DNA from: Minisyncoccota bacterium
Lineage (GTDB): Bacteria; Patescibacteriota; Minisyncoccia; UBA6257; 2-01-FULL-56-20
Length of the DNA: 64,000 nucleotides
Assembly (NCBI GenBank): GCA_036510525.1
Contig: DATCDU010000034.1
Coordinates: 976 to 64,975, forward strand
Reading direction: 5' to 3'
Within the stretch, counting starts at the first letter, position 1; every line of letters starts with the position of its first letter. A model generated the notes under the pieces. The model ran no database searches, was not told the origin of the DNA, and was given only the letters and a program-made list of their open reading frames with translations. Below, one piece after another: positions 9,287 to 38,975 of this stretch. Both the position numbers and the translations under genes were made by a program.

Positions 9287-9361
9287 GGGCCGTTGGTGAA
9301 AGGGTATCACGGCCACCCTGACAGTTGGCAGTTCGGAGCTCGATTCTCCGGCGGTCCACCA
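9287..9361 (+). other. tRNA-like element with genomically encoded CCA (acceptor stem, D-like arm and canonical T-arm; aberrant anticodon arm); probable pseudo-tRNA or tRNA-like structure
   Basis: GGGCCGU...GUGA/UCAC...CGGAG-CUCGAUU-CUCCG-GCGGUCC-A-CCA. The acceptor stem pairs with two G-U wobbles and the T-arm is perfect. The putative anticodon hairpin is GCCA/UGGC with a 10-nt loop. The element is flanked by an imperfect ~33-nt inverted repeat (9296-9329 and 9406-9439). Confidence 0.3.
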
Positions 9362-27066: not shown

Positions 27067-27498
27067 TTACTTACTGCCCGTTGTTCCGAATCCCCCGCGA
27101 GTTTTGTTGGGCATGTCATCCAGCTCCTCCCATTCCGGATGCGATATTTTCACAAAAGTGCCCTGCGCGATCCGCTCGCCTTTTTCTATTGCCACCGGCG
27201 CGGCGCTGAAATTATAATAGGCCACCCTGATCTCGTCCTCGTCGCCCGAATAGTCCGGATCAATGATGCCCATGCCGTTCGCCATCATGATCCCTTTTTT
27301 ATGGGTACTGCTCCGCGCGGCGATGAGGAGAAAATGATCCGCCGGCGTCTCGACGGCCACATTCAACGGAACATAGCCGACGGTGTCCGGCGCGATCATC
27401 ACCGCCTCGCGCGCGGTCAGGTCGAACGCCGCCGCGCCCTCGGTCTGCCGCTTGGGCAGCGGCAGGTCTTTATCGAATCGTTTTATTTTGATGTTCAT
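27067..27498 (-). CDS. dut: dUTP diphosphatase
   Basis: 143 aa with the dUTPase motifs (ARSSTHKKGIMMANGMGIIDPDYSGDEDEIRV, RIAQGTFVKI). Confidence 0.9.
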   Translation of the reverse strand: MNIKIKRFDKDLPLPKRQTEGAAAFDLTAREAVMIAPDTVGYVPLNVAVETPADHFLLIAARSSTHKKGIMMANGMGIIDPDYSGDEDEIRVAYYNFSAAPVAIEKGERIAQGTFVKISHPEWEELDDMPNKTRGGFGTTGSK

Positions 27499-28949
27499 TG
27501 TATGTGGTGCTTTTCCTTTATATCGTTATCCATCTCTTCTTCCGCCTCGCGCTTCTTCTTTTGTGCTTGCGCGAATAATTCCTGGAGTTCCCCATCGCTC
27601 TCCTGGTTCAACTCCTTCGCGCGCTTCTCCAGATATTTCTTGTCGTTCTTTTCAGGGTCGTCGATCACCTCTTCCATAAGCGCGTTCAGGATCCATCCCA
27701 CGCGGCGCGATTGCGGGAGGTCGAGGAGTGGCATCAGGTCGTCGCCACGCAGCGCGAGCATCTTCGGCGAAAGCGGATCGCGCTTGACCTTCTCTATCAT
27801 AAAGAGCAAATGGCGCAGGCGATACGGCATCGCCTTCTTAACGCCACTGCCGATGCGATCGGCCTCGCGCACTTTCAAAAGGTCGTCAATATTCTCCGGG
27901 CCCACACGCACCACGAGCCGCCGCACGCCCGCAGGCGAGATCACGCCGGTATCGTAATAGAACATGTGCCTGCGCACGAGATGCGCCACCTGTTCCACAA
28001 AATCTTTCGAGAATCGCAGGCGGTCGAGCATCTTCACCACCATACGCGCGCCAACATATTCGTGTTGATAGAAGGTGGAATTCGCACCGTCACCGCCTTT
28101 CACTTTAGGCTTGCCAACATCGTGGAGCAACGCGGCCATGCGTACGGGCAATGAATAATTTTCTCCTGCGGTGTAATCAAGCGCACGGACGTTGTGCTCA
28201 AAAACGGTATAGATGTGATGCTTGTTCTGCCCAACACCGATCCCGTCGCGCAACTCCGGTAGCACGTAGCGAAGCAGGTCGAGCTCTTCTAATAGGATGA
28301 TCCCCTTCGCGGCATTCGGGGTCATCAAAATCTTCACGAGTTCGTCGCGCACGCGCTCCTTAGCGATCGCCTCCAAGCCACCGGCCAGTTTTACGATCGC
28401 ACGCCGCGTGTTCATCTCGATCTCAAAATCCAGCTCTACGGAAAATCGCACGGCGCGCATCAAGCGCAGGGCATCCTCGGAGAACCGCTCCTCCGGCACG
28501 CCGACCGTGCGGATCACCCGATCCTTAATATCGCGCTCGCCACCGAACGGATCGATCACGTCACCCTTCATGTCCATCGCGAGCGCGTTCACGGTAAAGT
28601 CACGGCGCGAAAGGTCGTCCTCTATATTCTCTGCGAACTTGACCTCATCCGGGTGCCGCTTGTCGGTGTATCGCCCTTCGATGCGGTACGTCGTCACTTC
28701 TATTATTTTCAGGCGCGGGTCTTCGGATTCCGTCTTGATACCGACCGTGCCAAAATCATTCTCGTAGACGCTCTCGGGAAAAAGTTTTTGGACCTGCGCC
28801 GGCTGGGCGTCGGTGGCGACATCCCAATCCTTGGGCTCGCGACCGAGCAGCATATCGCGCACGCAGCCGCCCACGAGATATGCCTCAAACCCCGCCTCGG
28901 CGAGGGCATACGACACCGCAACAACCTCTTTCGGAACGTCGATCTTCAC
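27495..28949 (-). CDS. cca: CCA-adding tRNA nucleotidyltransferase with HD domain
   Basis: 484 aa. The N-terminus has the class II nucleotidyltransferase head (LVGGCVRDMLLGREPKDWDVATDA) and the C-terminus has an HD domain (AALLHDVGKP). Confidence 0.85.
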   Translation of the reverse strand: MKIDVPKEVVAVSYALAEAGFEAYLVGGCVRDMLLGREPKDWDVATDAQPAQVQKLFPESVYENDFGTVGIKTESEDPRLKIIEVTTYRIEGRYTDKRHPDEVKFAENIEDDLSRRDFTVNALAMDMKGDVIDPFGGERDIKDRVIRTVGVPEERFSEDALRLMRAVRFSVELDFEIEMNTRRAIVKLAGGLEAIAKERVRDELVKILMTPNAAKGIILLEELDLLRYVLPELRDGIGVGQNKHHIYTVFEHNVRALDYTAGENYSLPVRMAALLHDVGKPKVKGGDGANSTFYQHEYVGARMVVKMLDRLRFSKDFVEQVAHLVRRHMFYYDTGVISPAGVRRLVVRVGPENIDDLLKVREADRIGSGVKKAMPYRLRHLLFMIEKVKRDPLSPKMLALRGDDLMPLLDLPQSRRVGWILNALMEEVIDDPEKNDKKYLEKRAKELNQESDGELQELFAQAQKKKREAEEEMDNDIKEKHHIQ

Positions 28950-28984: not shown

Positions 28985-30115
28985 CTACCGTACCGTCGCA
29001 CCGAATTCCTTGGCGGTCTCTTCCTCTATATTCTTGTGAAGCACATCTACCTCTTCATTCGTCAGCGTCCGCTCGCTTGAGCGGTACGTGATCCGGTACG
29101 CGTAGCTCTTTTTGTCGGCGCCGAATTTTTCGTCATTCGCGTATTCGTCGATCAGCGCCACTTGTTCCACGAGGTCCCCCGCAATGTCGCGGACGAGATC
29201 GAAATAATCATTCGGCGCGAACGTCTTCGGCACGATGAACGAGATGTCGCGAATGACGGGCGGATATTTGCTCACCTCCACAAACTTTGTGCCCATGTGC
29301 AGCTGTTTCTTCACCCGCTCGTCGGTGGACCAGAGGAGCCGTATATCTGGAAGATCGGTGCTGATCATCGCGAGTCGCTCGAGGCCGAAACCGAACGCCC
29401 ACGCGTTGTATCCCTCCACACCGAATTTTTTGAACACGCTCTGCTTCGTCATGCCACCGCCCATGATCTCCAGCCACTGGCCGTTCACTTCAACCTCGAT
29501 CTGCAGGGATGGATCAGTATATGGGAATGTATCATCTAAAAAGCGGAATTTCACATCAGCGCCGAAGAGCGCGCGAACGATCTCGGAAAGCGCGGCGCGC
29601 AGGTCGTCGATCGTGAGCGGTGCGGTATCTGCGGGCGTCATGTACCATCCGCCGAACTGGTGGAAGATGTTCATGTGCTTGCGATCGATCTCGTCCTTGC
29701 GGTACACCTTTCCGTAACAGACGACGCCTAACTTCTCGCGCCGCGCGATGCGCTCCTTCACTTCCGGCAGCTGCGTGTAGTAATACCACATGACCGTGTC
29801 GTGCGTGCGCAAAATATTCTTGTCGTCCGCATAGTACGTGTCCGAGGTGCTCCGCGCCGGATGGTCGGCGGCAAAATCAAAAAGGTCGAAGCTGATTGAG
29901 GCAGGGACGATCTCCGGAATGATGATATTGTCGAATCCTTTGAGCCCCGGCGTGTTGCACGCGGTTTGCACTATTTCATAGAGCGGACTGCCCGGCGTGC
30001 GCGAAAGGTCGGGCATCGCAAGATAGCGTTTGATGCGCGCCGCCTCCGCATCAGTACGCTTGTCGACCGTCGCCAAAATCCTGTTCTGCTCGTCGAGAGG
30101 AATGCGATATTCCAT
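28985..30115 (-). CDS. pheS: Phenylalanyl-tRNA synthetase, monomeric mitochondrial-type (class II catalytic core plus C-terminal FDX-ACB anticodon-binding domain)
   Basis: 376 aa. PheS class II motifs are present (FDLFDFAADHPARS, FRFLDDTFPYTDPSLQIEVEV, GFGLERLAMI). There is no N-terminal coiled coil. The C-terminal ~95 aa (DISFIVP...SYAYRITYRSSERTLTNEEVDVLHKNIEE) match the FDX-ACB fold found at the C-terminus of mitochondrial PheRS and of PheT. Confidence 0.75.
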   Translation of the reverse strand: MEYRIPLDEQNRILATVDKRTDAEAARIKRYLAMPDLSRTPGSPLYEIVQTACNTPGLKGFDNIIIPEIVPASISFDLFDFAADHPARSTSDTYYADDKNILRTHDTVMWYYYTQLPEVKERIARREKLGVVCYGKVYRKDEIDRKHMNIFHQFGGWYMTPADTAPLTIDDLRAALSEIVRALFGADVKFRFLDDTFPYTDPSLQIEVEVNGQWLEIMGGGMTKQSVFKKFGVEGYNAWAFGFGLERLAMISTDLPDIRLLWSTDERVKKQLHMGTKFVEVSKYPPVIRDISFIVPKTFAPNDYFDLVRDIAGDLVEQVALIDEYANDEKFGADKKSYAYRITYRSSERTLTNEEVDVLHKNIEEETAKEFGATVR

Positions 30116-30172
30116 AACTACGATGGTAGCAGATATGGCCGATTACGAAAAGAATACCCGGGCTATGTGGGC

Positions 30173-31051
30173 CTAGGAGTGCGCGATCTCCTTAAGAAGC
30201 GCTTCGTCGATTTTTTCGTTGAATTCGAAAACGTGTTCCGGGTCGATCTCTTTGCGGTAAGAGATGTCTATTTCGGGTTTGCCGTCGCGCATGACGATGT
30301 CCGTTTTGAATCCTTCGGCGAAGCCGAATCCCTGGTTGCCGAGAAGTTCCACAAACTCATCCCGCTCTTTCTTGCCTTTCGTCTGCTCGATTACCTTCGC
30401 GAGGAAACATTCCAATATGCCCTGATGGGATGAGAGGAAACGCTCCAAGGTCTCCGAATATGCACTGTCTTCTTTATTTACGAGCTTATCCCACTGCGGC
30501 GCGATCTGGACATATTTCTCAATGACTTGGGCAATTTTCGATGCGGCCCGGGAGTACGTCGTACTGTCTTTATCTCCTAATTTTTCGGCCAACGCGTCGC
30601 TATTCTCCACGAGGAATTTCAAATACTCCCCCTTATTGAAAGCGTCATATCCCTCTTTGCCAAACTCGGTCGTTTCATCAAGGACAAAGTTGAGGCGCTC
30701 ATCGATCCCTATCTTGGAACCCACCTTAAGATCGGTGTCGAGCTTTTCTTGAAGCTCCTCAAGGGTTTCGTCTCCGGCGATATCATCTTCGCCCCCGGCC
30801 ATTGCGAGCGCGGCGGTCTCACGCGTCCTCTTTCGGGACGTCCCGAAAGCCACCGCCTGATCCACATTGGCAGCGCGATCCTTTGCCATCGCCTGCTCCC
30901 TCCCTGTTGGGGACAACAGGATATCCTCATCCCTCTTCTCGGGAGCTTTCTCCTTCTGGGCATGGCGCATGAACGACAACTCTATGCGCGAGCTATAGGG
31001 CTCCTGGGCTTCGTTGTGCTCGATACGTCCTTCTAATCCTTTGCCTTCCAT
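30173..31051 (-). CDS. Histidine phosphatase superfamily protein (phosphoglycerate-mutase-like)
   Basis: 292 aa with an RHG-type motif LSFMRHAQKE near the N-terminus. Confidence 0.5.
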   Translation of the reverse strand: MEGKGLEGRIEHNEAQEPYSSRIELSFMRHAQKEKAPEKRDEDILLSPTGREQAMAKDRAANVDQAVAFGTSRKRTRETAALAMAGGEDDIAGDETLEELQEKLDTDLKVGSKIGIDERLNFVLDETTEFGKEGYDAFNKGEYLKFLVENSDALAEKLGDKDSTTYSRAASKIAQVIEKYVQIAPQWDKLVNKEDSAYSETLERFLSSHQGILECFLAKVIEQTKGKKERDEFVELLGNQGFGFAEGFKTDIVMRDGKPEIDISYRKEIDPEHVFEFNEKIDEALLKEIAHS

Positions 31052-31060
31052 GCCATTAGC

Positions 31061-32095
31061 TTAATGTCTTTTTATGATAGTGACAAGTCCTTTGTTTGCA
31101 TCCACTTCTATAAGATCGCCATCACTAAGTATTTCGGTAGCGATCTTTGTTCCGATGATACATGGCTTCTTGAGTTCTCTGGCGACGATAGCCGCATGAC
31201 AAGTGACACCACCTTCGTCGGTAACAATAGCCACAGCTCGCTTCATGGCAACCACATAATCCGGCATCGTCATGGGGCTTACCAAAACTTCACCCTCTTT
31301 TAGTTTAGAGACCTCTTCCCGTTTTTTAATGATCCGAACTTTCCCCCGCGCAATCCCCGGATAGGCAACTTTGCCTTTGAATTCCGAAATGTTAGTTTTC
31401 TTTTCGGAGGAAACAATATCAATATCAAAGATCTTTTCCATATCGGGGATACCCTTTCCTGTATATAATTTAGCATTTGCAAAACTATACTTTTTAGCGC
31501 GATCTTCCAGCTCCTGTTTTGAGGGTAACTTGTTCGAAACGATTTCCTTCAATAGTAATGTATTAGCCAATGCGCCGAGCTTGGGATAAATTTTTCTTAG
31601 GGATTTCCTGATCACGACGTCGCTATCAGGAATCATGCGCTCGTTATTGATACGGGCAGTATGAGTAAGTTTGAATTCTCTACTTTTCGGATCAACCATT
31701 TCCATTATCCACCAAATCGCCTCGTACCATGCCCACACATCACGGAGTCGTACAAGATACTTCACCAGCTCAGCGTGATTGAGCGTTTTTCTTTTGGCCC
31801 ACACTGGCTTTATTAATCTCGCCCGTTGATTAAATTCACCAGCGATCTTTTCAACAAATTTTTTATCTTTCTTTATCAATCTACGCAACTCACTATTGAT
31901 CCAGTCCAATCCCTTGGGATTGAAATAATCGGTCACGATACCATTCTCACGGATAAAGATTTGGAACGGTAATTCGGGGTTTGTCTTCTTTGTCCATTGG
32001 CGCGGATCGGTTGTCTCAGCGCGCGCCCACGTTTCTATGAGTGGCAACGTGAAGTCACGGGCGAAATAACGGGAATAAATTCTCTCATTTTTCAT
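31061..32095 (-). CDS. Module 5 of the swivel-domain array: unknown N-terminal domain plus C-terminal PEP-utilising-enzyme mobile (phosphohistidine) domain
   Basis: 344 aa. The C-terminal ~100 aa (KGKVAYPGIARGKVRIIKKREEVSKLKEGEVLVSPMTMPDYVVAMKRAVAIVTDEGGVTCHAAIVARELKKPCIIGTKIATEILSDGDLIEVDANKGLVTIIK) is the PEP-utilisers mobile domain, with its catalytic His in TCHAAI. The start overlaps the upstream gene by 11 nt. Confidence 0.7.
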   Translation of the reverse strand: MKNERIYSRYFARDFTLPLIETWARAETTDPRQWTKKTNPELPFQIFIRENGIVTDYFNPKGLDWINSELRRLIKKDKKFVEKIAGEFNQRARLIKPVWAKRKTLNHAELVKYLVRLRDVWAWYEAIWWIMEMVDPKSREFKLTHTARINNERMIPDSDVVIRKSLRKIYPKLGALANTLLLKEIVSNKLPSKQELEDRAKKYSFANAKLYTGKGIPDMEKIFDIDIVSSEKKTNISEFKGKVAYPGIARGKVRIIKKREEVSKLKEGEVLVSPMTMPDYVVAMKRAVAIVTDEGGVTCHAAIVARELKKPCIIGTKIATEILSDGDLIEVDANKGLVTIIKRH

Positions 32096-33614
32096 TGGAT
32101 CGTTTTATAATTTTCACCGTTCCCTTCTCTGCATCCACTTCTACAAGATCTCCGTTCTTCAAAACCTTTGTAGCGATCTTCGTTGCGATGACGCACGGCT
32201 TGCCCAATTCCCGCGACATGATCGCGGCATGGGACAAAAGGCCGCCTTCATCCGTGACGATCGCGCTCGCCCGCTTCATAGCCGGCACGTAATCGGGATT
32301 CGTCATCGGACAAACCAAAATCTCTCCTTCTCGAATGGCATGCGCTTCGGATGGCTGCAGCGCGATCCTTACCTTCGCCCGGCTAAATCCCTTGCAAGCT
32401 ATTTGTCCCTTTAATTCAGTTATGGAATCGTCAACCGTATTGAATGACTGATCGATCCACTGGCTGATCTCGTGCCCTTTTACGCCCACGGCCATATACT
32501 GCTGGCCGTTCAAGATCATCATGGCGAAACCTTTTTTCCTTTCTTGAATAGTTTTCGTCGCAATGTCTTCTTGCTTTTCAAGCGCCCGGATAATCTCGCT
32601 CGAAAGGAGATATTGTGTGTCTTCGAATTTCACACCGATGCGCTTGGCCACCAACTGCAGGAAATCAAGATAGCGCGAAGAGGCCTTATAGGCCTCTTCG
32701 ATCCCGGCAGTGAGCACATATCCAAGCTCCCGCGCGTTTTCAACGTCGCGAAGAAATTTCCCATCATTCCGCCCCAATGCGAGAATTTTTCTAGCCAATT
32801 TCTGATTTTTTACATTCGCCTTCTTCTGTATTTCAAATGTCTCTTTGAAACCGCTCTTTATGGCGTCCGTGACGCGCCGGACAAGCTCGTTGTACGTCAT
32901 GGGGAAAAGCGGGTTAAGAAGGAATGTCGTGAGCCAATCATATTTTTTGAGGTACGCCCGAGCAGCTTTTTGAAACGCCGAATCGCGTGCAAAATTTTTC
33001 TTTTTCTCTGCGATGCACACCAGCGAATACAACGCCCCTTGCTCAAGCTGAAATCCTGTTTTCTTGATCGGGAAAACGACGTTCAAAAGCGCTTCATCGA
33101 AATCGGTCAGCTTCTCAATTTGTTTGCGATATCGTTCCAAGCCGTGCTTAACTTTGTCCGTCAACATATTCTCACTCGAAAGATAATAGGGATACCAAAA
33201 CCATGGAATGGCCTTGAGAAATGCCGCATCCATACGCCGCCAATATTTCGCCAACTGCCCGTTGGAGATCTTTTTATCTTTGATCGCGATATTTATCTCG
33301 TCAGCAACCTCGTTCAAGCTTTTGGGAACTTCAACTGATGATCTGAGAACCGTCCACAGCGCGCGGGGATTCTTCAATTTCTCCCGCAACTTCTGAAGCA
33401 TGATCTGCCGTTGTTTGGGATTATTATGCCCCTTGCTCGAATCGGTAAAAAGATAATCGTATGTATAGAGGTCAATACCGATCTCGCTGGGTAAGTGGGT
33501 CGCGATCGCCCGACAAAACAAATCGGCGAGCAGGATCGGCTGCTCCCCTCGTTGCTGAAATTCAAACTCCCAATTTTTGAGATGGACGAGTTTCTTTTCG
33601 ATTGGTTTTAACAT
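32085..33614 (-). CDS. Module 4 of the swivel-domain array: unknown ~400-aa domain plus C-terminal PEP-utilising phosphohistidine domain
   Basis: 509 aa. The C-terminus (KGFSRAKVRIALQPSEAHAIREGEILVCPMTNPDYVPAMKRASAIVTDEGGLLSHAAIMSRELGKPCVIATK) is a swivel domain with a conserved His. Confidence 0.7.
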   Translation of the reverse strand: MLKPIEKKLVHLKNWEFEFQQRGEQPILLADLFCRAIATHLPSEIGIDLYTYDYLFTDSSKGHNNPKQRQIMLQKLREKLKNPRALWTVLRSSVEVPKSLNEVADEINIAIKDKKISNGQLAKYWRRMDAAFLKAIPWFWYPYYLSSENMLTDKVKHGLERYRKQIEKLTDFDEALLNVVFPIKKTGFQLEQGALYSLVCIAEKKKNFARDSAFQKAARAYLKKYDWLTTFLLNPLFPMTYNELVRRVTDAIKSGFKETFEIQKKANVKNQKLARKILALGRNDGKFLRDVENARELGYVLTAGIEEAYKASSRYLDFLQLVAKRIGVKFEDTQYLLSSEIIRALEKQEDIATKTIQERKKGFAMMILNGQQYMAVGVKGHEISQWIDQSFNTVDDSITELKGQIACKGFSRAKVRIALQPSEAHAIREGEILVCPMTNPDYVPAMKRASAIVTDEGGLLSHAAIMSRELGKPCVIATKIATKVLKNGDLVEVDAEKGTVKIIKRSNEK

Positions 33615-33629
33615 GATCAGGGCGTTGGC

Positions 33630-36600
33630 CTATTTTAAGATTTTCACGATACCCTTGTCCGCATCCACCTCCACCATGTCGCCGTCTTTCAGCACCTGCG
33701 TCGCGATCTTTGTGCCTACAACGCATGGCACTTTGAGCTCACGGCTTGCGATGGCGGCGTGGCATGTCGTCCCACCCTCATCGGTAACGACCGCTGCTGC
33801 CTTCTTCATGATCGGAACGTAATCGGGATTGGTCATCTCGGTGACTAACACGTCGCCCGGCGCAAAATCCTTCATATCCGCAAACGAGCGGATCTTTTTC
33901 ACGCGGCCCCTCACGACACCTTTGTACGCCGGCGTTCCTTTGATCTCTGCAATCCCCTCGGCCGTCGCTTTTTCGAGCTCAATATTATTCTCCGAGAGTA
34001 AAGCGTCCAAACGCTCTATGGGATAGATCGTACCGTTCAGCATAACACAGCCATTTCTCCGTGAGCGAACCAGGGCGAGAACTTTTTCCCGGGAATTCCC
34101 CGCCAATTTAGCAACCTCGCCCGGCGCGATAAAAAACGTTATGTCCTTCAGCTCGGGGAAACGATCATGCCAAAATGCCACCATCACTTTATTCATTTTC
34201 TCGGTGTACTTCTCCGATTCCTCTCGATACCGTAGAAATTTCTTGCGAAGCGCCGGGCTTACCTCGGCCATGTCGGGAATGGTGAATGCCGTATTCATCG
34301 CCGACCACCAATCAACAAGATGCTCATAATAATTGTTGAAGTCTTTGACGGTCCGTATTTTCTTTTTATCCAAAAGGTAGGGCGATATCACCTTCCAGTT
34401 TGCATCGAGCGTTTTTACGAAACGCCGGACAAGCGTCGGGTCGCTCTTGAGTTTTTCTTTTAAAAGAGTGTTGATGATCGCCAGCTCCGCCGAAGAGTAC
34501 CACACCGATCCCTTTTCGCCGGGAGGAGGGACGATGAATAGATTTTGTCTTACGTTGTGGCCCAGAAAATTTTTCCATCCGCGGCGGTCGCTATCGTTCC
34601 ACATCGAGAAATAGAACAGTGTCTTCTCGCGAGAATAAATCTTCGAAAGGATATTCGTAATTCCCCGGACTTCGCTTAATGGCTTGAACTCTGTTTTGCC
34701 GCCCATGGTCGTCAAAGCCCACCCTTCTTTTCTCTTTTTTATTTCTTCCAAGTCCTTCCTGGTAAGTTTTTCGATACGATACACCTCCTCGGGCATCAAA
34801 AGGCCCGCGACCGCGGTATGCCGGGGATATTTCTTTTCGAAGAAATCCCTGTATACTCTATCAATCTCATTGGAATATTCCTGCGTCGATTCGCGAACCT
34901 TCAATGCCTTTGCCCGTAATCGCTTCGGAATCTCTTCCCTATCCGGTACCCCAAAAAGATATGCCATCGGAACCCACCACTGGACGCAGTCATTATAATA
35001 CCCTGCTAATTCCTTCAGATTCTTTATTTTCTTCTTCTTTGATATATAAAGCCATAGTTTCTTCCAGTAACGATAAAAATCGGCGATGATCACATCGAGT
35101 AATTTTGGATCCTCAATGATGGCCTGGGATATCTTCTTAAAGATCTCTTCGAGCTCATCGAGGTCGAAATAGATATCCACCACGCCGGAGGCATCGCGCA
35201 GGAAGGCCATGTTCCGGAAATTCGTCCCCGGAATATATCTCTCAAAATGGTCGCGATCCGCTTCATTCCAAATACTCGCGTAAAAGAAAGAGTGCTCGCG
35301 GGTCATGAATTTAAAGAGTTTCACGGATGAAGGCGGCATTCCAGCACTGTCACCATGTAAGATCCGGACCACGCCCCTATTCGCGTCCACCTCCACCACG
35401 TCCCCGTCTTTCAGCACCTGCGTAGCGATCTTCGTGCCAATAATGCAGGGCTTCTTCAGCTCTCTCGCCACGATACCGGCGTGGCAGGTGATCCCACCCT
35501 CATCGGTGACGAACGCCGCCGCGCGACGCATAGTGGGTAGAAAATCAGGAGTCGTCATCGGGGAAACAATGATGTCTCCCTCGCGAACTTCATCGAGCTG
35601 ATCACGTCGGCGCAATATTTTCACCGGGCCCGTTGCTATGCCCTTTTGCGCGATCTCGCCTTTAATAACTCCGCTGTTATTCCCGACAATCGCATCTCCT
35701 TTAAAAGAAAATTGCGGATTATTTTTCTCAAAATCAGATAGTGTACCTAAAAAAAGATCTTTGCCATCCACAATAAGTGAGTGTAGCTTGCGATCCTCAA
35801 GCTCCGGTGCGGCCGGAATCTTTTTTATCTCATCTATGAATATCGTCGTTTCGTAATTTTTCGTTCGAGGATATATTTCGGAAATGCTCTTTCTGATCGC
35901 AATATCGTTTTGCGCGAAAAATTCATCTTTATTGCGCATCGCCAATGCCTTCGCCCGTATACCCTTCGGTGTCTTATCATTGACGGCAGAATAATAGTAG
36001 AAAACGAAATATGGCATCGCCTCATCCGAAAGCTTGATGAGTTGAGCGAGTTTATTCACGCCCAGCTTCTTCTCTTTCCAAAGCTTGTGGATAATCGCCA
36101 ATTTCGCTTTATATTTTTCGAGGACATCGTCGATGAATTTGGGATCCTCTTCATTCTTCTTCAAGACCACGTCCTCAAGCCATTCGGTGGCGCGAAGATT
36201 TTCCCAGATCTCGATACTTCCCTGATTCATATAATGGATGATCCCCGGTAAATAGGGGTTCTTCCACCCAAATTCTTTTTCAACTCCCCGCGAACATCCG
36301 ATCGCCCACAACTCTTGCATGATATAGGTGGTATCACGCGTGTAGATTTTCTCGAAAGTCACTTGACCACTCGATCGTTCCAAAATTCTTACGACGCCTT
36401 TGTCTGCATCCACCTCCACCATATCGCCACTCTTGATAACACGACTGGCATTCTTCGTCCCGATGATGCACGGCTTTTTCATCTCGCGGGCGATGATGGC
36501 GGCATGACACGTAATACCCCCTTGATCGGTCACGAACGCCGATGCTTTTTTCATCGCCGGGACATATTCAGGGGTTGTCTGGTTGGCCACCAATATATCC

Positions 36601-38870
36601 CCCTCGTTAAAGGCCTCGATCTCGGACATATTCGTTGCCACGCGGGCGATGCCGCGCACCAATCCCTTGTAGGCAACCGTACCCCGGATCTCATCCACAC
36701 CCAAAGAAGAAGGAAAAAAGTGTTCGACCGAAATTTCTTTTTCGTACTCAGAACGGGATATCACGCGGCATTCCCCTGCAGAGAAAACGAACAGTGCTCC
36801 CTTGTCGCGGCGCAGACGAACCTCATTCCAATCTATGGCGGCAAACTTCTTCGGATCTAAAAATTCGGATGGGGTAATGTAAAAAATCAATTCCGGATCA
36901 ATGTCGTTCTTGGCCGCAGTCACACCAAGCGCTTCGAAGAATAAAGAATTGCCTCGCAACACGCCTTCTTTTCGCTTATCCTGGATGTGGGTGAATATCT
37001 CCGAGATCTCTATCACACGACGCAACTCTTTGGACACGCCAAGCGTTCGCATCAACTCCGCCTTTTTCTTTTTGTTCTCAGATATTCTTGTCTTTTCCTC
37101 CCGGATTTTCGCTGCAATCCCGTTACCCAATTTTTTGGATTCATCGAGAGCTTCTTGATATACATCTTCGGGAGTCAGCCGGACGCAAATATGATAGCCT
37201 GCCCTCGCCCAGAAGAAATCGTGCACGATAGGCCGACACTCCCCGCGTAAGAGATCTTTTTTGGAACCCTTCGCACCGCCCCGATGGATACGTTGGGCTA
37301 CTTCCAATTTACGAACCTCAAATTCATTCACAAAACTTCCGTATGCAGGTGCCGTAAGGAGTGCGACCACTTCCGGCGTCGCCTTCTTCCCCAATTCATC
37401 TTTAATAAACCGTTCGAGCCAATCTTCTTCCGCATCGTTCAAAAAAGTATCGACGACGTATGCGTAACTCGTATGGCGGACGATCGCATCGTGGATCGGC
37501 TGGAACTTTTTACGAAGCTCGGACGGAGACATTGTGGAAAGGTCAGCATGGGCAACAACCTCCCAATGCTTCAGGAAAATGTCCCATTCATGCTCCCAGT
37601 CTCCGTAGAACTCTTTTGTGAAGTTAGGGTTTTTGATTGCCTCGGCCAATACCTCTTTTCTTTTTTGAACCATCAAGTCCGCATTCCAAAACCAATCGAA
37701 GCGGTCGTTCCTGTTATAGTTTTGGAAAAAGAGACCATAAGGAATTGCGTATGGCGTCGCCTCGCTGCCATACGCTATACCCATGCCTTGTTGAGCAATA
37801 CCGAAAGGATAGCCGGAGAAGCTCTTGTTATACCAATGCGTGTTGGTCTTCATATCTTCCATGGCTTCCTCAAAGGTGTAGCCCTTCGCCATGCTCGTAT
37901 CCCCGGACTTCTCAGGTGCCACAACATCCATCAGCGTCGTGATCGGCCGCGATTGCACAATATAGAACTTTTCTTTCTCAAGTGCCCACTCGATGTCGCA
38001 CGGGAAGCCGTAGTGCTCTTCGATCCGCAGGATGAGCTCCGAGAGCTCAAGGACCTGCTTATCCGAAAGCGCCTGTTGCTCGGCTTTTGATGCAGGAATC
38101 TCCTTCCATTCGTTCTCCGCCTTCGGCGAACGGTAAAGTCCGCGCGTTTTCGCCTGCACCATGCGCTCGATGATCCGCCGAGGCGTTTTCTCGACAACAT
38201 AGCTGTCCGGTGTCACCTGGCCGGATACGATCGCCTCGCCGAGGCCGTAGCTCGCTTCGATGATCAGCTGATTGCGATCCTGTGTGACGGGGTGCACCGA
38301 AAACGCGATGCCGGAGATCTCGCTCTCCACCATTTTTTGAACGACGACCGCGACCGAAATCTTTTGTTTATGGAGATCTTTCTCAAATCGATAGAAAATG
38401 GCGCGCGGCGTAAAGAGCGACGCCCAGCAGCGCTTCACATTTTCCAAAACCTTCGACTGCGATGTGTTGAGAAAGCTGTCGAGCTGGCCCGCCCACGCAG
38501 CGGATGCACTGTCCTCCGCCGTAGCGCTCGAACGCACCGCAACGTACTTCGCGCCAAGTTTTTTAAACGACGAAGTTATCTCCCGCGCGATATCCTTCGG
38601 CATCGTTGCCGCAAGGATGAGCGCCCGAATCTTTTCCGAAGCGTTCTCAACGGTGTGGATCTCTTCGTGATTGACGGAATCCAGGATCGCATCGATGTCG
38701 GCGGCCAGCCCGGTCTCTTCTATAAACTTCTCGAATGAGGCGGACAGGATGACGAATCCCGGCGGCACGGGGATCCCGGCTTGGGTCATCTCGCCCAAGG
38801 AAGCGCCCTTGCCTCCGGCAAGACCCACATCGCTTTTGTTCAACTCCTTGAAATTGCGGAGGAGTTCCAT
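33630..38870 (-). CDS. Giant multidomain phosphotransferase-like protein: an N-terminal PPDK/PEP-synthase-type ATP-grasp nucleotide-binding domain followed by three repeats of [unknown domain + PEP-utilising phosphohistidine swivel domain]; no PEP-utilisers C-terminal TIM barrel
   Basis: 1746 aa. Residues 1-~320 (GGKGASLGEM...CDIEWALEKEKFYIVQSRPITT) match the PPDK_N ATP-grasp fold. The three swivel domains (…GGITCHAAIIAREMKKPCIIGTK…, …GGITCHAGIVARELKKPCIIGTK…, …GGTTCHAAIASRELKVPCVVGTK…) are encoded at about nt 36370-36690, 35340-35650 and 33633-33953. Confidence 0.75.
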   Translation of the reverse strand: MELLRNFKELNKSDVGLAGGKGASLGEMTQAGIPVPPGFVILSASFEKFIEETGLAADIDAILDSVNHEEIHTVENASEKIRALILAATMPKDIAREITSSFKKLGAKYVAVRSSATAEDSASAAWAGQLDSFLNTSQSKVLENVKRCWASLFTPRAIFYRFEKDLHKQKISVAVVVQKMVESEISGIAFSVHPVTQDRNQLIIEASYGLGEAIVSGQVTPDSYVVEKTPRRIIERMVQAKTRGLYRSPKAENEWKEIPASKAEQQALSDKQVLELSELILRIEEHYGFPCDIEWALEKEKFYIVQSRPITTLMDVVAPEKSGDTSMAKGYTFEEAMEDMKTNTHWYNKSFSGYPFGIAQQGMGIAYGSEATPYAIPYGLFFQNYNRNDRFDWFWNADLMVQKRKEVLAEAIKNPNFTKEFYGDWEHEWDIFLKHWEVVAHADLSTMSPSELRKKFQPIHDAIVRHTSYAYVVDTFLNDAEEDWLERFIKDELGKKATPEVVALLTAPAYGSFVNEFEVRKLEVAQRIHRGGAKGSKKDLLRGECRPIVHDFFWARAGYHICVRLTPEDVYQEALDESKKLGNGIAAKIREEKTRISENKKKKAELMRTLGVSKELRRVIEISEIFTHIQDKRKEGVLRGNSLFFEALGVTAAKNDIDPELIFYITPSEFLDPKKFAAIDWNEVRLRRDKGALFVFSAGECRVISRSEYEKEISVEHFFPSSLGVDEIRGTVAYKGLVRGIARVATNMSEIEAFNEGDILVANQTTPEYVPAMKKASAFVTDQGGITCHAAIIAREMKKPCIIGTKNASRVIKSGDMVEVDADKGVVRILERSSGQVTFEKIYTRDTTYIMQELWAIGCSRGVEKEFGWKNPYLPGIIHYMNQGSIEIWENLRATEWLEDVVLKKNEEDPKFIDDVLEKYKAKLAIIHKLWKEKKLGVNKLAQLIKLSDEAMPYFVFYYYSAVNDKTPKGIRAKALAMRNKDEFFAQNDIAIRKSISEIYPRTKNYETTIFIDEIKKIPAAPELEDRKLHSLIVDGKDLFLGTLSDFEKNNPQFSFKGDAIVGNNSGVIKGEIAQKGIATGPVKILRRRDQLDEVREGDIIVSPMTTPDFLPTMRRAAAFVTDEGGITCHAGIVARELKKPCIIGTKIATQVLKDGDVVEVDANRGVVRILHGDSAGMPPSSVKLFKFMTREHSFFYASIWNEADRDHFERYIPGTNFRNMAFLRDASGVVDIYFDLDELEEIFKKISQAIIEDPKLLDVIIADFYRYWKKLWLYISKKKKIKNLKELAGYYNDCVQWWVPMAYLFGVPDREEIPKRLRAKALKVRESTQEYSNEIDRVYRDFFEKKYPRHTAVAGLLMPEEVYRIEKLTRKDLEEIKKRKEGWALTTMGGKTEFKPLSEVRGITNILSKIYSREKTLFYFSMWNDSDRRGWKNFLGHNVRQNLFIVPPPGEKGSVWYSSAELAIINTLLKEKLKSDPTLVRRFVKTLDANWKVISPYLLDKKKIRTVKDFNNYYEHLVDWWSAMNTAFTIPDMAEVSPALRKKFLRYREESEKYTEKMNKVMVAFWHDRFPELKDITFFIAPGEVAKLAGNSREKVLALVRSRRNGCVMLNGTIYPIERLDALLSENNIELEKATAEGIAEIKGTPAYKGVVRGRVKKIRSFADMKDFAPGDVLVTEMTNPDYVPIMKKAAAVVTDEGGTTCHAAIASRELKVPCVVGTKIATQVLKDGDMVEVDADKGIVKILK

Positions 38871-38903
38871 AATATCCCTAAGATATCATATTTTTCTAGT
38901 TTG

Positions 38904-38975
38904 TGCCGACGGCAGGGATCGAACCTGCGACCTTGGCCTTATGAAAGCCCTGCTCTACCACTGAGCTACGTCGGC
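38904..38975 (-). tRNA. tRNA-Met (anticodon CAT; elongator-type G1-C72); CCA not encoded
   Basis: Minus strand: GCCGACG-UA-GCUC-AGUGGUA-GAGC-A-GGGCU-UUCAUAA-GGCCA-AGGUC-GCAGG-UUCGAUC-CCUGC-CGUCGGC-A. The cloverleaf is canonical apart from a single G·A mismatch at 27·43 in the anticodon stem. Confidence 0.75.

Follow-up and report, generated by a model that had tools for sequence, protein, structure and literature searches.

A histidine-swivel dikinase array with a single ATP-grasp head in Patescibacteria: a candidate hub-and-spoke phosphoryl-transfer system

Introduction

Histidine-swivel dikinases such as phosphoenolpyruvate (PEP) synthase, pyruvate phosphate dikinase (PPDK), rifampin phosphotransferase (RPH), phenylphosphate synthase and glucan water dikinase have, to our knowledge, all been described with one ATP site, one phosphohistidine carrier and one acceptor site. 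The operon analysed here breaks this one-site rule: it combines one ATP-grasp head with five carriers, up to ten in its relatives, and with a dedicated phosphatase. It lies in a stretch of 64,000 nucleotides (nt) from a Minisyncoccota bacterium (GenBank assembly GCA_036510525.1, contig DATCDU010000034.1, positions 976 to 64,975 of the forward strand), which we call the window, and consists of four co-directional minus-strand open reading frames (ORFs) that fill window positions 30173-38870. According to our analysis this is a real, reproducible, widespread and uncharacterised system, whose class of chemistry is predictable by homology and whose architecture would surprise specialists. No paper describing multi-swivel arrays was found in our full-text literature searches, in agreement with an initial annotation of this DNA that knew of no characterised system with such a layout.

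The best studied relative in terms of structure is RPH, in which an ATP-grasp domain (residues 1-314) is followed by a rifampin-binding domain (RIF-BD, residues 327-754) and a swivel (residues 767-865) (PMC4844700). The RIF-BD was described by Stogios et al. as having no structural homolog, the swivel is bound to it in all three of their RPH crystal structures, and they regard RPH as one member of an extensive and unexplored family of small-molecule dikinases, with fast divergence in the central domains (PMC4844700). Phenylphosphate synthase is split, the ATP-grasp domain residing in its beta subunit and the catalytic residue, His569 in Thauera aromatica, in the alpha subunit (Schmeling 2004 and Narmandakh 2006, as cited in PMC7500099). 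Genes named after both enzymes have already been noticed in the organisms of interest: the 'rph' genes counted in a resistome survey of the Candidate Phyla Radiation (CPR) come mostly from Microgenomates (PMC8651080), and a study of DPANN archaea annotated 'phenylphosphate synthase' and found no carboxylase (PMC8091004), just as no phenylphosphate carboxylase was found among the window neighbours that we scanned with Pfam. Both annotations probably refer to the modules described below.

Results

A single ATP-grasp head and five swivels

The largest gene of the operon encodes a protein of 1746 amino acids (aa), below the giant, in which the ATP-grasp head is followed by a long acceptor-type domain, swivel 1, a short acceptor-type domain X2, swivel 2, two consecutive short domains X3a and X3b, and swivel 3. 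Two smaller proteins of 509 aa and 344 aa each carry one acceptor-type domain and one swivel, and a 292-aa protein completes the operon (Table 1). In the Pfam domain map PPDK_N (PF01326) is found once, at residues 17-316 of the giant (E 5e-104), and is absent from the 509-aa and 344-aa proteins, and PEP-utilizers (PF00391) is found five times, with three matches in the giant (E 8e-80 overall) and one in each small protein (E 2e-26 and 2.4e-25). The PEP/pyruvate-binding TIM barrel, PEP-utilizers_C (PF02896), has no match at E<=0.1 in any of the three swivel proteins.

All five swivels retain an intact T/S-x-H motif. In the giant the catalytic histidines stand in TDQGGITCHAAI (His789), TDEGGITCHAGI (His1130) and TDEGGTTCHAAI (His1704), in the 509-aa protein in TDEGGLLSHAAI (His462) and in the 344-aa protein in TDEGGVTCHAAI (His300), and a six-frame scan of the 64-kb window revealed no further swivel His motif outside these five. 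The initial annotation had proposed five swivels with a catalytic His, one ATP-grasp domain and no TIM barrel, and Pfam, BLAST and the motif scan bear this out. In the PDB the ATP-grasp head has sequence matches to PEP synthase 8a8e, with 67-324 as the best stretch, and to RPH 5fbs (residues 6-324). Identity among the five swivels amounts to 54-63%, and among the short X domains to 14-23%, a difference consistent with a common docking partner that constrains the swivels and leaves the acceptor sites free to change.

The giant and 509-aa genes are 15 nt apart, the 509-aa and 344-aa genes overlap by 11 nt, and 9 nt separate the 344-aa gene from that of the 292-aa protein. The picture of three co-directional, overlapping genes from which the analysis started was therefore right in the direction of the genes and, with respect to overlap, only for the 509-aa/344-aa pair, and it missed the fourth gene. 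A tRNA-Met gene forms the upstream boundary of the operon. Scans of the locus for promoters and terminators gave background level only, and the anti-phage defence models of PADLOC did not match any of the four operon proteins.

Since tandem modules may raise a suspicion of mis-assembly, it is important that the giant recurs unchanged, with the four genes in the same order, on two independent ENA assemblies, and that a 48%-identical relative has the same order (giant, 505, 342 and 295 aa). DNA self-similarity within the locus reaches at most 78% over at most 236 nt. With the locus reproduced on two assemblies and in a relative, and with no long DNA repeats, an assembly artefact is ruled out.

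Acceptor-type domains form one paralogous superfamily

The domains that precede the swivels had been read initially as different from one another. This is not what we find: they are one superfamily of paralogs with the fold of the RPH rifampin-binding domain, either short (~230 aa) or long (~400 aa). There are six homologous acceptor-type domains for five swivels. Two are long, the first central domain of the giant and the N-domain of the 509-aa protein; four are short, X2, X3a and X3b of the giant and the N-domain of the 344-aa protein. The idea of a substrate domain plus swivel unit repeated five times thus stands as far as the number of swivels is concerned and fails as a strict pairing, X3a being extra. 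The arrangement X3a-X3b-swivel is not unique to this locus, as X-X-swivel units were detected with our own hidden Markov model (HMM) also in L001 and L006, two of the related loci used for comparison.

The kinship of the short forms is seen directly in BLAST. The full 344-aa protein aligns with X2 and swivel 2 (giant residues 839-1171, 35% identity, E 1e-62) and with X3b and swivel 3 (residues 1407-1746, 31%, E 2e-44), while X3a (residues 1187-1380) aligns with residues 9-202 of the 344-aa protein (23%, E 1e-7). For the long forms, giant residues 591-834 are 33% identical to residues 263-507 of the 509-aa protein, and in hhalign the first central domain of the giant matches the 509-aa-type N-domain profile with a probability of 99.6% (E 1.7e-23, 320 columns). 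Compared directly, the 509-aa-type long N-domain and the short X domain give a marginal probability of 71%; the first central domain of the giant matches the short X domain as well (91.5%, 172 columns), and because it bridges both profiles the kinship of the long and short forms is firm.

AlphaFold2 (AF2) models of the 344-aa and 509-aa proteins, both built on alignments of about 90 sequences, have predicted local distance difference test (pLDDT) values of 95 and 94 and predicted template modelling (pTM) scores of 0.90 and 0.91, respectively; we read the high pTM as a sign that the swivel is probably placed correctly against its own acceptor domain. In a Foldseek comparison of a module model with the PDB all six best matches are RPH-Lm entries (E 1e-14 to 1e-10, query TM-score, TMq, 0.52), followed by PPDK with a TMq of 0.19. 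The short module aligns with RPH over 199 residues, about 95 of them beyond the swivel. Identity to RPH across the RIF-BD fold is 15-16%. Sequence profiles alone extend only ~70 residues into the rifampin-binding domain, and a sequence-profile search of the PDB with the short X domain protein matched in the swivel part only, so the link to RPH required fold comparison. Structure prediction thus confirms that the modules resemble the RIF-BD plus swivel of RPH, and the earlier choice of RPH as the nearest known architecture holds for solved structures.

Among 93 homologs of the 344-aa protein the residues R13, W23, E27, P43, G62, E184 and R199 of the X domain are invariant, and the domain is rich in conserved aromatics in this subfamily (W23, W34, W65, W123, W128, Y7, Y44, Y203). 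In all four short X paralogs of the locus, the swivel-less X3a included, R13, W23, R148, P171, E184 and R199 (344-aa numbering) are kept, and most other positions invariant within the 344-aa subfamily differ among the paralogs. On the ground of this conservation pattern, we suggest that Arg/Arg/Glu/Arg (R13, R148, E184, R199) is a putative shared core for phosphoryl handling, around which the specificity pockets would have diverged.

Arrays are widespread in Patescibacteria and DPANN archaea

The giant has more than 1500 scored homologs. The best 120 of them are 990-2980 aa long and contain a single ATP-grasp domain in 117 cases, with two swivels in 29, three in 57, four in 21, five in 11 and six in 2. 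Spacing between the catalytic histidines of giant homologs is bimodal (~340-370 and ~460-520 residues), and the two peaks match the sizes of the short and the long module. Homologs with a named source come from Paceibacterota, Moranbacteria, Buchananbacteria and other Parcubacteria, from Microgenomates phyla, and from Woesearchaeota and Nanoarchaeota, and the 344-aa protein itself is listed by NCBI under a Candidatus Paceibacterota metagenome-assembled genome; within CPR the system is near-ubiquitous, and DPANN archaea have it too. The module count varies among relatives, and the family, concentrated in Patescibacteria and DPANN, numbers thousands of proteins with 2-10 swivels; modules may be fused or split. 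Loci taken from GTDB representative genomes (L005, L008, L010, L011, L034, L026 and L045) illustrate the range. In the Candidatus Woesearchaeota metagenome-assembled genome JAFGGS010000004.1 a 3762-aa ORF (L005, 8291-19576) has one ATP-grasp domain and ten swivels and is the largest array among the loci examined; an archaeal protein fragment in L008 has at least ten swivels, and L010, L011 and L034 have runs of 7-8 consecutive stand-alone module genes. Free-standing ATP-grasp genes of 313-316 aa occur among free-standing module genes in L026, L045, L087 and L091.

Single-module relatives are informative as to what a module is. Some, of ~660 aa, consist of an ATP-grasp domain, one X domain and one swivel in this order (L009 and several representatives), and in others, of ~820 aa, PPDK_N is fused to a 509-aa-type module (42-44% identical over 97-99% of the module). 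Because such fusions exist, each module can be seen as the acceptor half of an otherwise complete RPH-like enzyme.

A search of 1.84 billion representatives with the short X domain alone gives 201 clusters at 50% identity (E<=1e-3). For the 344-aa and 509-aa proteins, orthologs from other metagenomes show 66-82% identity and those of Woesearchaeota and Nanoarchaeota 42-44%; either level is above the identity between paralogs inside the locus, and the paralogs are therefore old. The pattern suggests that modules have moved between Bacteria and Archaea. G+C content is about 0.48 across the operon (window 30000-38000) and 0.53-0.56 in the flanks at 26-30 kb and 38-42 kb, which together with the archaeal orthologs at 42-44% suggests lateral acquisition. 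Some stand-alone X-swivel genes sit alone amid housekeeping genes.

A histidine phosphatase superfamily partner and other neighbours

The 292-aa protein exceeds the cut-off of PF00300 His_Phos_1 (33.2 bits, cut-off 21.7), and its R29, H30, R73, R75 and H209 are invariant across three homologs (alignment A3). The alignment to the profile or to solved family members is confined to the N-terminal ~70-80 residues (E 0.003), and we assign the protein to branch 1 of the histidine phosphatase superfamily. When metagenomes were searched with its family alone, by means of a three-sequence alignment, 11 loci were returned (a scan with the single sequence gave no matches), and in all eight informative ones, that is, those with enough upstream DNA, a swivel-module gene lies immediately upstream on the same strand. 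In the opposite direction, three loci found independently of the phosphatase, L014, L021 and L085, have a gene of this family no more than 2.5 kb from swivel genes, directly downstream of a swivel gene in the first two. As the modules directly upstream of the 292-aa-family genes fall in different subfamilies, the phosphatase is linked to arrays in general and its role would be common to all modules. The family is the only strongly conserved companion of the arrays.

Other phosphohydrolases recur beside arrays. In L001 a 295-aa protein occupies the same position as the 292-aa protein; BLASTP between the two is not significant and Pfam gave no match for it, and with its RHGE motif and THGG segment it is a possible distant analog. 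Short classical His_Phos_1 genes (about 180-220 aa) or RHGE-motif proteins, distinct from the 292-aa type, stand beside several arrays, the classical ones in L007, L010 and L027, and in L085 the His_Phos_1 gene, of 183 aa, is separate from the 292-aa-family gene. HD-domain proteins of ~200 aa are a second recurrent phosphohydrolase companion, absent from the window; in L010, L013 and L085 their genes overlap with the final swivel gene at its 3' end, and the L089 copy is near the array.

Two ABC exporter genes upstream of the giant were initially tied to the operon. The tie is weak and they are probably not operon members, as the tRNA-Met gene intervenes, the closest related locus has another swivel gene in their place, and of 51 array loci no more than 3 have ABC exporters at a distance of up to 2.5 kb from a swivel gene. 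A class-I TyrRS/TrpRS-type (tyrosyl/tryptophanyl-tRNA synthetase) gene lies within the same distance of swivel-module genes in 4 of the 51. Those of L004 and L083 carry a fused N-terminal YbaK-type tRNA_edit domain, an unusual fusion, and the L083 gene overlaps the start of an X-swivel gene by 4 nt; this linkage may or may not be meaningful. On the other side of the operon the window has a gene for a single-chain protein resembling phenylalanyl-tRNA synthetase (PheRS) and, beyond it, genes for a CCA-adding enzyme and then a dUTPase. The remaining entries of Table 1 lie elsewhere in the window or in the comparison loci.

Table 1. Coordinates of the operon, of its domains and of neighbouring features in the window, and of phosphohydrolase and synthetase genes near arrays in related loci
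Feature	Location	Strand	Size or residues	Basis and remarks
Giant gene	33630-38870	-	1746 aa	ORF, translation, Pfam, NCBIfam, own HMM map; identical protein P0001
ATP-grasp nucleotide-binding head	37884-38870	-	giant 1-329	PF01326 PPDK_N; sole copy in locus
First acceptor-type central domain, long form	36696-37883	-	giant 330-725	hhalign, BLAST
Swivel 1	36375-36695	-	giant 726-832	His789, TCHAAI; PF00391, motif, own HMM
Short acceptor domain X2	35667-36374	-	giant 833-1068	X HMM match 838-1042
Swivel 2	35355-35666	-	giant 1069-1172	His1130, TCHAGI; Pfam, BLAST, motif scan, own HMM
Orphan X domain X3a	34710-35306	-	giant 1189-1387	without own swivel; X HMM, BLAST
Short acceptor domain X3b	33963-34655	-	giant 1406-1636	X HMM, BLAST
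Swivel 3	33633-33950	-	giant 1641-1746	His1704, TCHAAI; Pfam, BLAST, motif scan, own HMM
Stand-alone long module gene	32085-33614	-	509 aa	
RIF-BD-like acceptor domain of 509-aa protein	32421-33614	-	residues 1-398	
Swivel 4 (509-aa protein)	32100-32420	-	residues 399-505	His462, LSHAAI
Stand-alone short module gene	31061-32095	-	344 aa	
X domain of 344-aa protein	31391-32095	-	residues 1-235	
Swivel 5 (344-aa protein)	31067-31387	-	residues 237-343	His300, TCHAAI
Histidine phosphatase superfamily companion gene	30173-31051	-	292 aa	PF00300
tRNA-Met (CAT) gene	38903-38975	-		ARAGORN; in the 198-nt gap between ABC exporter gene and giant gene
PheRS-like gene	28985-30115	-	376 aa	tRNA-synt_2d and FDX-ACB, mitochondrial-type layout; 57 nt downstream of the phosphatase gene
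CCA-adding enzyme gene	27495-28949			
dUTPase gene	27067-27498			
Long ORF elsewhere in window	10000-16752	-	2250 aa	
tRNA-like gene	9287-9361	+		ARAGORN; two-base anticodon, identity undetermined
Short His_Phos_1 or RHGE-motif gene	L007 7289-7864			
Short His_Phos_1 or RHGE-motif gene	L010 12384-13010			
Short His_Phos_1 or RHGE-motif gene	L027 3664-4194			
Short His_Phos_1 or RHGE-motif gene	L027 4449-5102			
Short His_Phos_1 or RHGE-motif gene	L085 17946-18497			
Short His_Phos_1 or RHGE-motif gene	L001 8551-9438			
Short His_Phos_1 or RHGE-motif gene	L069 11392-12099			
HD-domain gene	L010 11685-12290			
HD-domain gene	L013 4316-4918			
HD-domain gene	L085 16345-16938			
HD-domain gene	L089 4606-5247			
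TyrRS/TrpRS-type gene	L004 6127-7593			
TyrRS/TrpRS-type gene	L083 8541-10004			
TyrRS/TrpRS-type gene	L005 20297-21319			
TyrRS/TrpRS-type gene	L020 4210-5472			

Discussion

From the analysis presented above it would be logical to suggest, with a probability of about 0.6, that the operon encodes a hub-and-spoke histidine-swivel dikinase of the RPH/phenylphosphate-synthase kind, which would phosphorylate several different predicted acceptors. In the proposed mechanism the single ATP-grasp domain would bind ATP and move its beta,gamma-pyrophosphoryl group onto the swivel His, the gamma-phosphate would be lost as inorganic phosphate (Pi), and His~P would be left on the swivel, with the overall reaction ATP + acceptor + H2O -> AMP + Pi + acceptor-P. 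One head would charge five swivels, the three of its own polypeptide in cis and those of the 509-aa and 344-aa proteins in trans; we infer charging in trans because free-standing ATP-grasp genes accompany module genes in related loci and because phenylphosphate synthase works as a split enzyme. Each charged swivel would then return to and dock on the acceptor-binding domain that immediately precedes it in the same protein, RIF-BD-like and of the long or the short X form, and hand the phosphoryl group to a predicted acceptor held by the conserved Arg/Arg/Glu/Arg core. As the acceptor domains are strongly diverged, the paralogs most likely bind different acceptors. The 292-aa partner would most likely hydrolyse His~P on idle swivels or, alternatively, a phosphorylated product, and by analogy it may most simply be taken for a phospho-His reset enzyme like SixA.

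A number of observations weigh against this proposal. Some swivels are 900-1400 residues away from the ATP-grasp head, or on another polypeptide, and would have to reach it from there; X3a, having no swivel, breaks a strict one-acceptor-one-carrier rule; and stand-alone X-swivel genes in L083 and L084 have no ATP-grasp gene within 10 kb. A dikinase costs two ATP equivalents per phosphorylation, which is odd for energy-poor fermenters, and a co-expressed phosphatase looks futile unless it serves as a reset or as a later step of a pathway. The proposal takes its chemistry from homology and supposes that the conserved Arg/Glu residues face the swivel His.

The initial annotation offered a choice between a battery of phosphotransferases and a relay, and our data favour a battery fed by one ATP-grasp site, with nothing specific in support of a phosphorelay. 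In a relay the phosphoryl group would travel from His to His along the swivels, possibly ending on the His_Phos_1-type catalytic His, and the X domains would be scaffolds or sensors of a signalling device. It would account for the many tandem phosphocarriers behind a single ATP entry point and for a partner tied to arrays generally and not to one module type, and the histidine phosphatase superfamily, which forms a phospho-His intermediate, includes the phospho-His phosphatase SixA. Nevertheless, every swivel is fused to an acceptor-type domain of the RIF-BD fold with the conserved Arg/Glu core, the ~660-aa and ~820-aa single-module relatives resemble complete enzymes, no output domain, for example a DNA-binding one, is present, and a number and order of modules that vary freely (2-10, fused or split) are ill-suited to an ordered relay. 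We also know of no described swivel-to-swivel transfer in the superfamily, and regard a relay as improbable. The same low likelihood is given to a single acceptor common to all modules, perhaps a polymer such as a glycan, nucleic acid or protein, on which the repeated units would act in a multivalent or processive manner and phosphatases would close the cycle, in the way known for starch with glucan, water dikinase and the phosphoglucan phosphatases. The recurrence of phosphohydrolases beside the arrays (long and short His_Phos_1 and ~200-aa HD proteins), the conserved aromatics of the 344-aa-subfamily X domains and the double X-X-swivel units speak in its favour. It is hard to reconcile with the 14-23% identity of the X paralogs of the locus and with the loss, in the other paralogs, of most aromatic positions invariant in the subfamily, and Pfam detected no carbohydrate-binding or nucleic-acid-binding domain in the locus proteins. 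Moreover, each paralog is closer to its orthologs in other phyla or in the other domain of life than to its neighbours in the same protein, and this is a pattern of distinct specificities.

Inactivation of antibiotics or other xenobiotics by resistance kinases resembling RPH, in concert with the adjacent ABC exporters, comes to mind readily, as RPH is the closest solved structure, as 'rph' genes were counted in the CPR resistome survey (PMC8651080), and as exporters do occur near swivel genes in those 3 of 51 loci. We find it very unlikely. The RPH equivalog models score the giant far under their cut-offs (NF041857, 482.9 versus 999; NF000283, 341 versus 1700), a wide margin by which rifamycin resistance is rejected; identity to RPH over the RIF-BD fold is low, and Stogios et al. 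note fast divergence among RIF-BD sequences and consider other molecules to be the probable substrates of most homologs (PMC4844700). The exporters are set apart by the tRNA gene and are not conserved, and near-ubiquity across CPR with presence in DPANN, often amid housekeeping genes, hardly fits a resistance function. The chance that we deal with ordinary PEP synthase/PPDK paralogs, or with a mis-assembled repeat, is negligible. It is true that the giant passes the curated cut-off of NCBIfam NF005057 (714 versus 598 bits), but this score sums four partial stretches, the ATP-grasp domain and three swivels, and the matches with listed coordinates end near profile position 461 of 798, whereas the true PEP synthases in the comparison loci are proteins of 750-800 aa composed of ATP-grasp, swivel and a ~320-aa C-terminal domain. 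With no TIM barrel, identity as a PEP synthase paralog is rejected, and a repeat error is contradicted by the two assemblies, the 48%-identical relative and the absence of long DNA repeats.

Returning to the hub-and-spoke dikinase, we may even suggest, as a tentative and rather less probable extension, that the arrays are a general phosphorylation platform specific to the ultra-small and genome-reduced CPR/DPANN symbionts, with one hub, up to ten carriers with their own acceptor pockets, a phosphatase for reset or drain, and modules exchanged between Bacteria and Archaea. If this is true, a single ATP site would replace a set of dedicated kinases, for instance in the salvage of host-derived metabolites. 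The system would offer a natural multiplexed phosphoryl-transfer hub, and identities of the acceptors could show how CPR/DPANN organisms process scavenged metabolites. There is also a practical side, as most genes of the family are labelled 'PEP synthase' or 'PEP-utilizing enzyme', which distorts metabolic reconstructions of Patescibacteria and DPANN, one example being the call of a 'phenylphosphate synthase' in DPANN genomes without the carboxylase (PMC8091004). The database name 'phosphoenolpyruvate synthase' is given because the NF005057 cut-off is passed by summed partial matches.

Comparison with known systems

Membership in the PigC/RedH, PRK08296-type and RPH families is rejected by NCBIfam cut-offs, and that in the PEP synthase family by the missing TIM barrel, the NF005057 cut-off being passed only by summing. 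The ATP-grasp domain and swivels of the locus are closest in sequence to true PEP synthases (8a8e matches the giant with E 7e-101 and the 344-aa-family swivel with E 2e-37). PEP synthase and PPDK share with the locus the His motif GG-x-T-C/S-H-A-A-I; they differ in that at the locus RIF-BD-like acceptor domains replace the TIM barrel and the swivel-acceptor unit is repeated. The prodigiosin and undecylprodigiosin ligases PigC and RedH have the order ATP-grasp, central domain, swivel, and illustrate that phosphoryl transfer can activate a substrate for condensation instead of just phosphorylating it. Their NCBIfam models match the ATP-grasp head and the swivels of the locus, although with scores of 435 versus 1300 and 460 versus 1350, and in contrast to the locus each consists of a single module, and no sign of a pigment pathway is seen here. 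The PRK08296-type model NF006153 reaches 110.6 bits against a cut-off of 578, in the swivel region only.

With SixA, a phospho-His protein phosphatase, and other branch-1 histidine phosphatases the 292-aa protein shares the RH motif, an S-x-R-K-R-T-x-E-T-A segment and a downstream conserved His; it differs by an insertion of ~100 residues and by RHA or RHD in place of RHG.

Phenylphosphate and phenylphosphoamidate synthases (Pps/Pas) come close in organisation, being split dikinases in which an ATP-grasp subunit charges an acceptor and His subunit in trans. The layout of Pps alpha, an acceptor region with the His near the C-terminus, is that of the 509-aa and 344-aa proteins, and the Pps beta-like ATP-grasp is free-standing in related loci, while in the window it is fused to the first module. 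Unlike the locus, Pps has one alpha per beta subunit and no array.

RPH-Lm (5FBS/5FBT/5FBU, 5HV1) shows the same succession of ATP-grasp, helical acceptor-binding domain and C-terminal swivel, which giant residues 1-832 reproduce in full order, the 509-aa and 344-aa modules having the RIF-BD plus swivel fold, and the expected chemistry is the same (ATP + acceptor -> AMP + Pi + acceptor-P via His~P). In RPH each ATP-grasp domain is accompanied by a single acceptor domain and a single swivel in ~865 aa, whereas the locus distributes five swivels and six acceptor-type domains over three polypeptides, with a short X form of about half the size of the RIF-BD and with a dedicated His_Phos_1 partner as a feature of its own.

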